The notes under the pieces: generated by a model
The model's input: the letters and a program-made list of their open reading frames with translations, nothing else
Told to the model about the DNA's origin: nothing
Database searches by the model: none
Made by a program: the position numbers and the translations under genes
Shown: positions 6,937 to 16,458 of the stretch, in pieces
How the letters are laid out: the number at the start of each line of letters is the position of its first letter
Numbering within the stretch: position 1 is the stretch's first letter
Assembly (NCBI GenBank): GCA_043816005.1
Contig: JBDRIM010000073.1
Coordinates: forward strand, 1-32,000
DNA: 32,000 bases
Direction: 5' to 3'
DNA from: Candidatus Micrarchaeota archaeon
GTDB lineage: Archaea > Micrarchaeota > Micrarchaeia > Anstonellales > Bilamarchaeaceae

Positions 6937-7173
6937 ATGAATGATACAATTGCATTTTTGATAAAAAAACTTTCTAGTAAAAGTGTTATGGAAAGGAAGG
7001 AAGCAATAAAAGAACTTAAGCACCATGTCCAGAGTTCAGGAAATCACCTGGCAAGATTATCATTAGATTATATCTCAGAACATGATCCTTCTTATACAGT
7101 AAGAAATCTGGCAAAACAGGCACTATCCTCTCAAATAAAACAACCTGTATGGGAACGTACTCATCTCTTCTGA
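6937..7173 (+). CDS. small HEAT/PBS-lyase-like repeat protein
   Basis: 78 aa, starting 9 nt after the preceding stop. ERKEAIKELK and DPSYTVRNLAKQAL resemble HEAT_PBS repeats (D..x.VR..A..AL). Confidence 0.5.
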   Translation: MNDTIAFLIKKLSSKSVMERKEAIKELKHHVQSSGNHLARLSLDYISEHDPSYTVRNLAKQALSSQIKQPVWERTHLF

Positions 7174-7183
7174 CTAAAAGATA

Positions 7184-7193
7184 TTATATAAAA
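7184..7193 (+). promoter_or_regulatory. TATA-box-like element upstream of tRNA-Val
   Basis: ttatataaaa lies about 27-37 nt upstream of the predicted tRNA 5-prime end at 7221, the expected archaeal promoter spacing. Confidence 0.45.
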
Positions 7194-7220
7194 TCTATTG
7201 GAACATCATTCTGCTACTAT

Positions 7221-7559
7221 GGGCTCGTAGTCGATTCCGACTTTTTGGAAAAAAGTCGGCCAAAAACTTTTTGGTTAAACGACAATGGTAAGACGCCTGC
7301 TTGACATTTTCACCGTTTAGAAAACAACAATGTCGTGATACGACATTGTGCCCATAAAAACGAAAAATCGTTTTTATAGAGGGGTGAAACCAAAACGGTC
7401 TGTAAATGGCCGATCAAAAACATTTGGAAAGAGAGTTTTGATGCACATAATTGTTCGATCTCTCGAACAATTTGCGTCTTGAACGATTCATCGTTCAAGT
7501 ACGACTTTTTCCAAAAGTTGCAATGCAGGAGATACGCGGTCCGATTCCGCGCGGGCCCA
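7221..7559 (+). tRNA. tRNA-Val(GAC) with two insertions (about 7235-7283 in the D loop; 7307-7523 at position 37/38)
   Basis: Joining the exons by hand gives a 73-nt cloverleaf. Acceptor GGGCTCG/CGGGCCC, D stem GTCG/AGAC with G18 G19, anticodon stem CCTGC/GCAGG, loop TTGACAT. T stem CGCGG/CCGCG, discriminator A73. A T-run follows. The T loop TCCGATT is atypical at position 55. Confidence 0.65.
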
Positions 7560-7563
7560 AATC

Positions 7564-10931: not shown

Positions 10932-11621
10932 TTAAATTCTATTTAATGCATCTTTCATCTTTTCTATTGTCATATTCGTTGCAATCATGGGGATGCGTTC
11001 ACGTTCTGATATTTTTATTGCAAGTTTGTCTACTTTACCAGAATCTAAATTGTGCAAAACAACTGCCGATGGTTTTGAAGAGCTTACTCTTATGACTACA
11101 AATGGGCTCCTACCAGTACTAACACCTGTGAAAATGAACACTCTCTCATTCACATTTCCATACAAATTCTGAAAATATGAAAATGGCATATCCAAGATGA
11201 CCTTTATACTATCAATCAACGTATACCCATAAATTTTCTTAGTTTCAACAAGATCTCCGTTAGTCAAAACCCTACCATCAATTAATTTTACAAAATCCTT
11301 AAGTAAAATCGATCTTGCAAACTCGTGGACTTCGAAATATTCACTCACTGGTTTTTCTTTTTCTCTAAACTTCTGAGCAATTCCACCGCCTTTTATTCTA
11401 TCTATATCAAAAAGTGCATTGACGAAACGTTTTACTACTCCTGTTCCTGGTGATTTTCTTCTGTTTCCTTCGTAATCACTGATAGTTGATACTGTAATAT
11501 CAAGATGTTTTGCAAGTTCAACCTGTGAGATGTTGAATATTTCACGCCATTTCCTCATGGTTGCTCCTGGGTCTTCTGATAGTGAAATTTCGCCTGCTAT
11601 TTCCATTTTTATTTTTTCCAA
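10932..11621 (-). CDS. archaeal HTH (XRE-type) transcriptional regulator, COG1395-like
   Basis: HTH segment WREIFNISQVELAKHLDITVSTISDYEGNRR followed by a ~150-aa C-terminal domain. TTG start at 11621 lies 5 nt after GAGGAG. An alternative ATG is at 11606. Confidence 0.8.
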   Translation of the reverse strand: MEKIKMEIAGEISLSEDPGATMRKWREIFNISQVELAKHLDITVSTISDYEGNRRKSPGTGVVKRFVNALFDIDRIKGGGIAQKFREKEKPVSEYFEVHEFARSILLKDFVKLIDGRVLTNGDLVETKKIYGYTLIDSIKVILDMPFSYFQNLYGNVNERVFIFTGVSTGRSPFVVIRVSSSKPSAVVLHNLDSGKVDKLAIKISERERIPMIATNMTIEKMKDALNRI

Positions 11622-11749
11622 TTAATCTCCTCAAAATGGAAAGTAGTGAACGCAGTTCACGTTAATTTCCATTTTTATTTTTTCCAATTAATCTCCTCAA
11701 AATGGAAAGATGCGAACTTGTTCGCAAAGATTTCCATTTTTATTTTTTC
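11599..11749. repeat. tandem 66/65-bp repeat overlapping the regulator start
   Basis: Direct reading. Two identical 45-nt units at 11599-11643 and 11665-11709: atttccatttttattttttccaattaatctcctcaaaatggaaag. A 20-nt partial third copy lies at 11730-11749. Spacers contain GTGAAC-GCA-GTTCAC (11646-11660) and TGCGAAC-TT-GTTCGCA (11711-11726). Confidence 0.9.
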
Positions 11750-13773: not shown

Positions 13774-14141
13774 TTTTTTCACCTGAAAGCAGCAGAGCCG
13801 CGTTAGCCGTTCATTCCAACAAATGGACGTTTCATCCCCTCAAAAAATGGGCCAAACCCATTTTCATTAAAGAAATACGTCCATTGTAGATCGCATGTGC
13901 TACAATTGTACCGCACATGGTAAATACATTTAGTCAATGTATTTATACTTTTCCCTCGAGAATGTGCCATTTGTTCTTTTTTTAGTCATTTTATGTCCTC
14001 ATTTTTTCGTCGTAAAACATCAAGTATTTAAATCATCGAAGGTGCCATTACTTACTCTCGTAATTGTTTCGTTAATTTTTTCGCATTGCGAAAAAATGAG
14101 AAACTGGGAGAAAGCGACCAAAATGATAAAAAGGTGAAACT

Positions 14142-15221
14142 ATGGAAGATTTGGTAAGATCGGTTGTTGGAGAAAATACGCCGCAAGCTGACAAACAGTC
14201 CTCTGATGCATTGAGTTCAGAGTGCATTAAAATCGTTACTGTCGGTGTGGGTGGTGCTGGTAATAACACCATTAACAGACTTATAAAGTCCGGAGTTAAA
14301 GGTACCGAGTTGGTTGCAGTTAACACTGACAAACAACACCTTAACATTGTTCATGAAAGAGCAAAGAAGGTCTTAATAGGTAAATCAGTTACCAAAGGTT
14401 TGGGTGCTGGTGGTTATCCTGACATAGGTGCAAAGTCGTGTGAAGTTGACAGGCCACTTGTTGAAAGAGAACTTGAAGGCGCTCATCTTGTATTTGTTTG
14501 TGCAGGTATGGGTGGTGGTACTGGCGGTGGTGCAGCTCCAATTATTGCACAAATTGCAAAAGAGCAAGGAGCAATCGTAGTTGCCATGGTTACCTATCCA
14601 TTTGCTTTGGAAAGAGCAAGAAAAAAAAGAGCAGAAGATGGTATTAAACTCTTGAAAAAGAGCTGTGACTCAGTTATTATTCTTGATAATAATAGATTGG
14701 TTCAGTTAGTTCCAAATTTGCCAATGGCAGAAGCATTTGCTGTTGCTGATGAGATTCTTTCAAGGGCAATTAGCGGTCTTGTATGGACCATCACACAACC
14801 ATCTTTGATTAATATCGACTTCGCAGATGTCCGTGCAATCATGGAAGGCGGAGGAGTTGGATTCATTGCAGTTGGTGAAGGTAAAGGAAATGACAAAGTC
14901 AAAGCAGCCGCAGAGGGTGTTATAAAGAACCGACTGTTGGATGTTGACTTCGAAGGTGCGAAAGGTGCACTTATTCACATTACTGGTGGTAGTGACCTCA
15001 CATTGGGAGATGCTATCAAAGCTGGTGAATGGGTAACCGAAAAGATGGATGCCGAAGCAAATGTCAAATGGGGCGCTAGAATTATGCAGAATTACGAAGG
15101 CAAATTAGAAATTGTTGCCATCGTAACTGGTGTAAAAGGTGCGTCAGTTGCAGGCTCATCGATGATTGAAGAAGAATCTGTTATGCCAACATACTCTTCT
15201 GACCTTGAAGTTTTAGGTTAA
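14142..15221 (+). CDS. ftsZ: cell division GTPase FtsZ
   Basis: Tubulin signature [12 protein letters not shown], plus VGVGGAGNN and NTD motifs. AGGTGA lies 5 nt upstream of the ATG. Confidence 0.95.
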
Positions 15222-15279
15222 AAACTTGAGGACCATAGAACGATTCGTCGTTCTATTGGACCTTGAAGTTTTAGGTTAA
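15201..15279. repeat. perfect 21-nt direct repeat of the ftsZ 3-prime end flanking a 37-nt hairpin insert
   Basis: gaccttgaagttttaggttaa occurs at 15201-15221 (last 6 codons plus the ftsZ stop) and again at 15259-15279. The insert contains ATAGAACGA-TTCG-TCGTTCTAT (15235-15256). Confidence 0.9.
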
Positions 15280-15300
15280 TTTTTTTTCTTTTCTATTTTT
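15280..15300 (+). terminator. T-rich terminator region after ftsZ
   Basis: A T8 run at 15280-15287 followed by cttttctattttt, immediately after the hairpin and repeat. Confidence 0.4.
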
Positions 15301-15348
15301 CTTTTCATCTGGATATAGAAATTTAAATACACATTACTAATCTTCTTT

Positions 15349-16458
15349 ATGAAGAAAATTATAGTTGTTCTTGTATTCGCCATTCTTTTTCTTTTGGTAA
15401 TCAACATCTTTTTTCTATACAGCATAGCTACTATTCGTGATGAACTAACAAGTCAAAAATCAGATTTTGAAAGTGAAAAATCCATCTTAGCTGCCCAAAT
15501 AATTGATATAAACGATACTGTAAACCAGAAAGACCAGGAGATCATCGAATTAAATTCACAAATCGAGGCCGATAAACTAAAGATAGACCAAACAACCAAT
15601 CTTCTAACTTATACTCAACAACAACTCAATCTCACAAAATCCGAATTGTCAAACACTTCGTTATCACTTGAGGAAGCACAATCAGAGTTTAGTATTATTA
15701 AATCTGAAATTGACGATATTGCATTCTCTATCAATGAATCAATCCAATGGTTCAACTCGAATTCCCATCTTGGTCCATCAACCGAGTTTTTTTCAGATTA
15801 TGTTTATGATAAATGTGTGCATTCAGATACTCTTAATCTTCCCTGTATAGAATTTTTCATGGAGAAACGATTGGATTTTTTTTATGAAGAAGAATCCCCA
15901 GACAAACTCTATTCAATAGATGAAATGATCTCTAGGGGTGGTGGAGATTGCGAAGATTATTCACTTTTTCTTAAGGCAGTTTTGAATGATCTTAAATTAT
16001 CCGATCCTGATTTGCAAGTTATGGGGTGGACAAAAGGAGATAATAACTTTATGGTCTATGAAGGTTCTAGTAGTTCGTGGTTCTTTAAGAATGCACAGCC
16101 AGTTTATTTTGGTTCCCTTAGCGATCGTTATCCAGTTGTTTTTTGTTATGTAACATCCTACACTGATGAGGAATTACGTGGTCATTGTATAGTGGCATTA
16201 TCAAAAGAAAAAATTGAAACAAAAGCAGATCTCTACAAACTTAATGGGGCTGCTACATTTGAACCACAAGATGGCGAATACAAAGGCACCATCAGCAACG
16301 ATTATTTCTTGTGCGGCGGAGAGGATTGTGGTAAAAGTACACACGATATAATTTTAATAATCACTGATGATGATTTTTACAAAATGGTTGGTGGAGAATG
16401 GCAAAGTCTTGCATTCTATCTGAACGAAATTACTCAATTCAAAGCTAAGTTAGGATAA
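15349..16458 (+). CDS. membrane-anchored coiled-coil protein with C-terminal transglutaminase-like cysteine protease fold
   Basis: N-terminal TM (IIVVLVFAILFLLVINIFFLY), then a ~100-aa Q/E/L-rich heptad-like region. Candidate Cys-His-Asp triad: GGGDCEDYSLFL, RGHCIVAL, FEPQDG. Confidence 0.55.
   Translation: MKKIIVVLVFAILFLLVINIFFLYSIATIRDELTSQKSDFESEKSILAAQIIDINDTVNQKDQEIIELNSQIEADKLKIDQTTNLLTYTQQQLNLTKSELSNTSLSLEEAQSEFSIIKSEIDDIAFSINESIQWFNSNSHLGPSTEFFSDYVYDKCVHSDTLNLPCIEFFMEKRLDFFYEEESPDKLYSIDEMISRGGGDCEDYSLFLKAVLNDLKLSDPDLQVMGWTKGDNNFMVYEGSSSSWFFKNAQPVYFGSLSDRYPVVFCYVTSYTDEELRGHCIVALSKEKIETKADLYKLNGAATFEPQDGEYKGTISNDYFLCGGEDCGKSTHDIILIITDDDFYKMVGGEWQSLAFYLNEITQFKAKLG

Follow-up and report, generated by a model that had tools for sequence, protein, structure and literature searches.

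A dispersed family of short perfect hairpins in a Micrarchaeota genus that also forms newly gained tRNA introns

Two short hairpins, one in the intron of a tRNA-Val gene and one after the ftsZ stop codon, are members of a dispersed, structured family that is insertion-polymorphic between the species of one archaeal genus and that also forms newly gained tRNA introns. They lie in a window of 32,000 nucleotides, contig C73:1-32000 of G000 (Candidatus Micrarchaeota archaeon), whose genome comprises 1.26 Mb with 36.5% G+C and is 86% complete. Both hairpins are probably copies of genus-wide, non-autonomous modules of a REP-, MITE- or RPE-like kind, mobile at the DNA level and copied by template switching. 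We infer the mobility and the copying mechanism from flanking duplications of variable length, inverted copies of the flanks and arms that pair only by Watson–Crick rules.

Results

The two window hairpins and the genome-wide family

The GAACGA-type module at 7478..7499 (+ strand) lies in the anticodon-loop intron of tRNA-Val(GAC) and has the loop TTCA, and that at 15235..15256 (+) follows the ftsZ stop codon and has the loop TTCG. Each has a perfect 9-bp stem and a 4-nt loop with the common core GAACGA-TTCN-TCGTTC, as a sequence-only reading of this DNA had claimed. Two exact sites for the 16-nt core are present in the window compared with 0.06 expected, and none of 100 shuffles reaches two. 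Logan contigs from public groundwater runs, possibly of the source sample, match both the tRNA-Val region and the ftsZ insert exactly (X2 at 7087-7561 and 15210-15501; X4 at 15066-15259), so neither region is a local assembly artefact. Four public runs yielded only low-depth contigs, in which neither joints at the inserts nor empty-site alleles of a single population were seen; all gains and losses of hairpin modules described here come from comparisons between species and not within one population.

Genome-wide, GAACG-N6-CGTTC occurs at 37 sites in 1.26 Mb, the controls giving two (reversed genome) and 0-1 (shuffles), and GAACGA-N4-TCGTTC at 13, compared with none in the controls. The core is therefore far above chance against a shuffled background, and the small dispersed palindromic family proposed in the sequence-only reading is borne out, its copies being strongly extragenic and insertion-polymorphic between species. 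Both window copies are absent in G023. All but one of the 37 sites (36/37) are perfect hairpins. The four stem positions outside the search pattern are Watson–Crick in 35, 36, 33 and 28 of the 37 copies, while the tenth is paired in just 10, and the stem stops sharply at 9 bp. G-T pairs are nearly absent, accounting for 4 of 148 free pairs in the family stems. In an alignment of 17 copies 97.2% of cells are paired, compared with 27-44% in slid controls, and 24 cells have changed on both sides, compared with 8.4 in shuffles (0/500).

Intergenic enrichment was evident, with 33 of the 37 copies outside ORF cores (P = 8e-24), which make up 85% of the genome. Stop codons are found ~70 nt or less upstream of at least 10 copies, and no T-tract directly follows the family hairpins. 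Roughly 11 of the 15 copies that could be oriented are in the sense direction and 4 are antisense, a tally made by eye and too weak for use. Separately, hairpins of the form A5-GAAC-N4-GTTC-T5 overlap the stop codons of convergent genes (G000:C24:12523-12544 and similar) and look like bidirectional terminator-like elements.

Often a family hairpin is paired with a second hairpin via short linkers (..GT-stem-N-ACAT..). A double-hairpin composite of 60-62 nt is common to unlinked loci, with compensatory differences, and composite units of 33-62 nt at unlinked loci are 87-97% identical, the differences being compensatory in both hairpins. One such unit contains a nested 53-nt insertion with a 6-nt repeat at its bounds.

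The loose pattern GAAC-N2-8-GTTC is not enriched (236 matches genome-wide, 219 in the reversed control), so GAAC/GTTC half-sites alone define no family, and the candidate rule that any palindrome with GAAC/GTTC or TCGA half-sites is a member was rejected. Three further palindromes of the window, at 7449-7472, 11646-11660 and 11711-11726 (the last two read from the sequence), are present as had been described, but the kinship assigned to them through their half-sites did not hold up, the loose pattern being without enrichment. They belong to the general population of perfect hairpins of G000, which comprises several families and numbers 466, compared with 113 in the locally shuffled genome.

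The ftsZ insert and other blocks of the window

The last six codons of ftsZ and its stop codon (15201..15221, +) are repeated at 15259..15279 (+) with 21/21 identity, the second copy being followed by a T-tract. An imperfect 13-nt inverted copy of the duplicated target (15222..15234, +), apparent in both the sequence and the minimum-free-energy fold, pairs with 15258-15272 across the hairpin through an arm that includes G-U pairs, one mismatch and one bulge. The minimum-free-energy fold of 15191-15290 is one long hairpin of -27.3 kcal/mol with one mismatch and a 1-nt bulge; it contains no 3-nt bulges, and the 3-nt bulge/4-bp helix (bulge-helix-bulge) motif was not found in it. A donor search for the non-hairpin arm of the insert gave no second copy in the genome. 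The junction carries no insert in G023, G024, G014, G020 and G002, the plain stop codon being followed by the T-tract in G023 and likewise in the other four, and in G012 and G003 it is occupied by different hairpins and a diverged duplicate of the C-terminal codons.

Exact local duplications had been reported near the palindromes, and both the 21-nt pair at ftsZ and the 45-nt repeats at 11599..11749 (−) are as described. The latter comprise the start region of the downstream minus-strand gene in triplicate, with the two small GAAC/GTTC hairpins at 11646-11660 and 11711-11726 and inverted arms between the copies, the same direct-inverted-direct architecture as in the ftsZ insert. A 42-nt arm-hairpin-arm block from this region is 88% identical to a block at G000:C10:5948-5989. 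Another hairpin-containing block, of 98 nt at 13777..13874 (no strand assigned), has no counterpart in the G023 ortholog; within it lie a small hairpin (13844-13864) and 9 nt of the right flank in inverted copy (p = 0.017).

Many gene starts are enclosed in a perfect A/T hairpin that has the Shine-Dalgarno core GGTG as its loop and a 3' arm that stops at the ATG (for example G000:C73:41828-41922, G000:C61:33100-33170 and 11599-11749 in the window), and start regions are often duplicated with hairpins between the copies. That the same layout is found at ftsZ, at MetRS and at the 5' ends of tRNAs suggests that this architecture is at least partly an insertion footprint.

Hairpin modules as tRNA introns

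The anticodon-loop intron of tRNA-Val is 217 nt long (7307..7523, +; exon bounds by reading the sequence) and is a chain of perfect hairpins at 7327-7349, 7354-7377, 7449-7472 and 7478-7499. The third (7449..7472, +) has 10 bp, is of the TTCGA/TCGAA type and adjoins the GAACGA module, the two forming a double-hairpin arrangement that is common in the family and recurs at unlinked loci. G023 and G003 have shorter orthologous introns (~90 and ~84 nt, respectively), neither of which contains a GAACGA hairpin.

Because ARAGORN, Rfam and a T-arm pattern missed tRNA genes, the tRNA context was read by hand and by comparison with orthologs. On the window, ARAGORN and Rfam at the gathering threshold missed tRNA-Val(GAC) and found nothing; an Rfam E-value scan of 14 hairpin loci yielded just one tRNA and a sub-threshold RNase P RNA, and the T-arm pattern search missed atypical T-loops. 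With ARAGORN run without its intron option only five tRNAs were found in G000, and standard annotation tools miss most of its tRNAs. The archaeal RNase P RNA (L019:2628-2937) scores 59.7 bits, below the gathering score of 84, and hairpin inserts may interrupt it.

The same hairpin modules constitute whole, newly gained tRNA introns, which the sequence-only reading had overlooked. In tRNA-Ala(UGC) (G000:C85:2104-2229), which has the G3:U70 pair, a 52-nt intron at the canonical position 37/38 combines a family hairpin and another small hairpin with a tail of the ACAT type, and an intronless gene is matched end to end in the syntenic gene of G023 and in at least 18 further congeners. In the predicted fold the anticodon stem is followed by a 3-nt bulge and a 4-bp helix between CUUG of the anticodon loop and CAAG at the intron end; the bulge and helix lie on the 3' side, and the 5' splice site opens into a multiloop. 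A tRNA with the anticodon GUC, assigned by reading, has a ~112-nt T-loop intron at ~G000:C77:309-420 (L003:300-430), in which two GAACG family hairpins are enclosed by an outer A/T-rich stem. The G023 ortholog, mislabelled by ARAGORN, lacks this intron. As read, it would place a 4-bp UUCG/CGAA helix by the T stem with one 3-nt bulge, the other side being a 4+2 internal loop. The predicted motifs of both introns are relaxed forms of the bulge-helix-bulge, which in its strict form has a 4-bp helix between two 3-nt bulges at the splice sites, and are putative cleavage sites.

Other hairpin families also contribute introns. tRNA-Gly(GCC) (G000:C61:17315-17430) has a 43-nt D-loop intron, and tRNA-Gln(CUG) (G000:C85:27400-27700) has D-loop and T-loop introns of ~135 and ~60 nt, all absent in the G023 orthologs and built from GC-rich stems or from CTTTT..AAAAG stems followed by a CCAAAAC box.

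G000 encodes a 403-aa ORF with two matches to the splicing endonuclease catalytic domain PF01974 and a second ORF of 333 aa with one. The 403-aa ORF resembles the three-unit, broad-specificity splicing endonuclease of Micrarchaeum (PMC3239211), a type assigned by analogy and not by phylogeny. A double GAACG hairpin is positioned 120-150 nt downstream of the gene for this ORF (L124; G000:C64:47321-48496 and 48615-48661).

Copies in MetRS and at the end of an SRP54-like gene

In the MetRS gene (G000:C27:13975-14038; L013:1467-1530) a 54-nt copy, made up of a 10-nt direct repeat and 44 nt, is inserted in frame and adds 18 aa to the linker before the C-terminal tRNA-binding domain, leaving the reading frame open. 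The linker is too diverged for a DNA search in relatives; the protein alignment resolved it and showed the insert to be absent in G023, G024, G014 and G003. By reading, a cut at the sole candidate splice motif of the insert would break the frame.

In an SRP54-like gene (G000:C61:9221-9330; L019:1471-1580; G023:C9:309460-309570) a 55-nt insert with two hairpins interrupts the sequence 13-15 codons short of the natural end, and the TGA stop falls within the 5' arm of a hairpin of the GAACG type. Past this hairpin the G023 gene still encodes the canonical tail, with 12 of 13 residues as in congeners and differences that are mostly synonymous, and its Lys codon preceding the stop is repeated 25 nt downstream. 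Speculatively, and for this one case, the insert could be a relic, a site of hairpin-assisted translational bypass or a splice. The copy at the SRP54 3' end is orthologous in G000 and G023 and shows a compensatory pair change.

Turnover between congeners and insertion footprints

Species differ by the gain and loss of hairpin modules, each as a discrete block. Across 39 congeners the family has 0-42 copies (0-4 in controls), with none in G002, G008, G009 and G014, and outside the genus mostly 0-3. G023, the closest relative (88% identity), lacks both window copies, the in-frame MetRS copy, the tRNA-Ala intron and the tRNA T-loop intron, and has empty sites at ftsZ, in the tRNA-Val intron, at C73:41904 and at C54:1242. 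When G000 was compared with 800 kb of G023, 21 clean indels were found, mostly blocks of one to four hairpins and in both directions, reciprocal insertions being seen in G023 alone. The indel at C73:41904 is a ~100-nt block straight after the start codon, and that at C54:1242 is a 51-nt two-hairpin block at the stop codon (46 nt plus a 5-nt repeat). Intergenic hairpins at orthologous sites preserve their pairing, with 16 compensatory double changes to 18 single ones, whereas chance hairpins in coding sequence decay, with 3 double to ~130 single changes.

A test for flanking direct repeats had been proposed. Many copies have them, with target repeats of 5, 6, 10, 13, 21, 27 or 45 nt, and others have none. 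Where empty alleles or exact repeats are known the duplications are ~0-1, 1-2, 4-5, 5, 6-8, 10, 13 and 21 nt long, and elsewhere 27 and 45 nt; a fixed-length target duplication was rejected, since the lengths vary between 0 and 45 nt. Of 18 indels, five have a block that includes its flank in inverted copy at p < 0.05 and a sixth reaches p = 0.06, and three of the 18 have a direct flank copy. Insert blocks are often nested palindromes, and the junctions often involve (C)ATG.

The TnpA(REP)/IS200-like mobiliser that had been suggested was not found in the 86%-complete genome: PF01797 (Y1/IS200/RAYT) had no match there, the positive controls being matched, and neither did PF07282 (TnpB), Cas1 or rve. 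The sole DDE_Tnp_1 gene found (G000:C50:700-1600) is IS4/IS5-like, with a 278-aa open frame and terminal inverted repeats of ~20 nt. It was rejected as a parent of the family, its terminal repeats being unrelated to the GAACG arms. Nor was any intermediate between a donor and a recipient site observed.

Discussion

A model for the spread of the modules

The modules settle where harm is small: directly after stop codons, directly before or after start codons with duplication of the start region, in a protein linker and in tRNA introns. In a tRNA gene the 3' tail of the block would pair with the adjacent exon to give a 4-bp helix beside a 3-nt bulge. Because such pairing yields a bulge-helix-bulge-like motif, the multi-unit splicing endonuclease of G000 could plausibly remove the block, and the modules would thereby create new tRNA introns and enlarge existing ones. 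Their spread would be by copying at the DNA level and not by a dedicated transposase, the likely route being replication-linked template switching or microhomology-primed copying at the hairpins. Template switching would explain the variable flank duplications, the inverted flank copies, the nested palindromes and the strictly Watson–Crick arms.

A more specific version is tentative and rather doubtful. Insertion by transposase-free, hairpin-primed template switching would write a short inverted copy of the target beside the imported hairpin, and insertions into RNA genes would then be born with their splice helix and bulge. Were this true, the modules would be a self-fitting generator of archaeal tRNA introns, which would explain the differences in intron load among congeners.

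The invariant GAACG/CGTTC top of the stem and the fixed 9 bp and 4 nt would fit recognition as the binding site of a single protein, and they look more like specific protein recognition than unguided template switching; a hairpin-specific enzyme, which the geometry favours, would be a candidate alternative to template switching. Several insertion processes may also be mixed, as many copies have no duplications and only about one event in three shows an inverted flank copy.

Alternative explanations

Each of three other accounts is weaker than that of mobile modules. The hairpins could be functional RNA elements, serving as binding or processing sites of one RNA-binding protein, as 3'-end stabilisers or as terminator-like elements, which are held by selection and whose spread is secondary. 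Consistent with this are the copies shortly downstream of stop codons (at least 10 within ~70 nt), the 21 perfect hairpins of all families that overlap stop codons, the invariant stem top and fixed geometry, and the preservation of pairing both in intergenic hairpins (16 compensatory to 18 single changes, against 3 to ~130 in coding chance hairpins) and in the SRP54 3' hairpin, which both G000 and G023 have retained despite a pair change that is compensatory. That conserved copy and the rough sense bias of ~11:4, counted by eye, hint at a role at the RNA level. However, G002, G008, G009 and G014 do without any copy, homologous sites are empty in the closest relative, and copies are also found in a protein linker, in introns that are discarded and in antisense orientation; a G-T content of 4/148 pairs would be unusual for stems selected only as RNA, and no T-tract directly follows them. 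Function as the primary explanation is thus unlikely. Mobile modules may in addition stabilise RNA 3' ends or bind protein, but this is unneeded to explain the data.

It is highly improbable that the hairpins are not mobile at all and arise de novo at each site by mutational bias, through quasi-palindrome correction or template switching. Such a bias would account for the excess of perfect hairpins (466 compared with 113 in the locally shuffled genome), the nested palindromes with inverted and direct flank copies, the strictly Watson–Crick arms and hairpins that were built from local sequence, such as those with a Shine-Dalgarno loop at gene starts and the palindromised copy of the SRP54 tail. 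It does not account for the same 5-6-bp stem top, 9-bp length and 4-nt loop at 37 unlinked sites where 0-2 are expected, nor for family members at non-orthologous sites in other species. Local palindromisation cannot yield composites of 33-62 nt with 87-97% identity across unlinked loci, and the GAACG core is not derivable from the known empty sites at ftsZ, MetRS and tRNA-Ala. A very unlikely account, too, is mobility at the RNA level, in which excised bulge-helix-bulge introns re-enter RNAs through reverse splicing, with reverse transcription and recombination then fixing them. Whole tRNA introns do consist of family modules, and a related idea exists for Thermoproteales (PMC4090602), but at ftsZ, MetRS, gene starts and nested sites the flanks are duplicated over 5-45 nt, a footprint of events in DNA; moreover, the fold of the ftsZ insert has no 3-nt bulge/4-bp helix motif, and the MetRS copy is in frame, where a cut at its sole candidate motif would break it.

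Significance and comparison with known systems

A recent preprint on archaeal tRNA introns states that ‘how they arrive remains open’ (10.64898/2026.10.13.758758). One genus here provides matched pairs of an intronless tRNA gene and the same gene with a hairpin-family intron, and because of these pairs, and because the same family shows DNA-level duplications at gene ends and in a protein, a DNA-insertion route to intron gain becomes directly testable. A reduced 1.3-Mb DPANN genome also tolerates, and perhaps uses, fast-turnover selfish hairpins without a recognisable transposase.

In the literature no published description of such hairpin elements in Micrarchaeota was found. A bacterial likeness is to the RAYT-mobilised REP, BIME and REPIN sequences (PMC3184786 for the small-repeat context), which are likewise short extragenic palindromes present in tens of copies, often paired, often just after genes and patchy among relatives. 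In contrast to these, whose RAYT transposase gene (Y1, of the IS200/IS605 type) is typically bordered by the repeats, the Micrarchaeota genome is without a Y1/RAYT match at 86% completeness, the stems are perfect rather than imperfect, and the family has no conserved 5' tetranucleotide of the GTAG type. REP and REPIN sequences insert without target duplication, whereas many of the present copies are flanked by duplications of 5-45 nt, others by none, and some copies act as tRNA introns.

MITEs, including the SM elements of the archaeon Sulfolobus, are small and non-autonomous, with terminal inverted repeats and target duplications of a length set by the transposase. The present modules are also small and non-autonomous, have inverted arms readable as terminal inverted repeats and are associated with target duplications, but they are far smaller (22-60 nt), the duplication length is not fixed (0-45 nt) and no parent IS with matching ends was found. 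Rickettsia palindromic elements are selfish bacterial palindromes of ~100-150 bp inserted in frame in proteins. The 18 aa added to the MetRS linker are a similar in-frame insertion into a tolerant protein segment, although this is the one clear coding copy here and most copies are extragenic or intronic.

Fungal mitochondria contain mobile GC clusters, double-hairpin elements and ‘byp’ elements, organellar hairpins of 20-60 nt for which no transposase is known. The resemblance extends to single and double hairpins of 20-60 nt in an AT-rich genome, at intergenic, intronic and sometimes coding positions; translational bypass has been shown for byps, whereas here, at the SRP54 tail, it is speculation.

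Thermoproteales have tRNA introns that transpose (Fujishima et al. 2010; summary in PMC4090602). They share with the present introns their relatedness across different tRNA genes and positions, recent gains and a host with a broad-specificity splicing endonuclease. The present modules differ in occurring outside tRNAs with DNA-level duplications, in forming multi-module introns that grow by nested insertion and in their lineage, the Micrarchaeota of the DPANN. Finally, the direct-inverted-direct flank copies and the small junction palindromes at ftsZ and at gene starts resemble the tandem inversion duplications and quasi-palindrome template switching of bacterial genetics (cf. PMC10766183 for a yeast model), but they span tens of bases and not kilobases, and the hairpin at the junction is an imported family member rather than local sequence.
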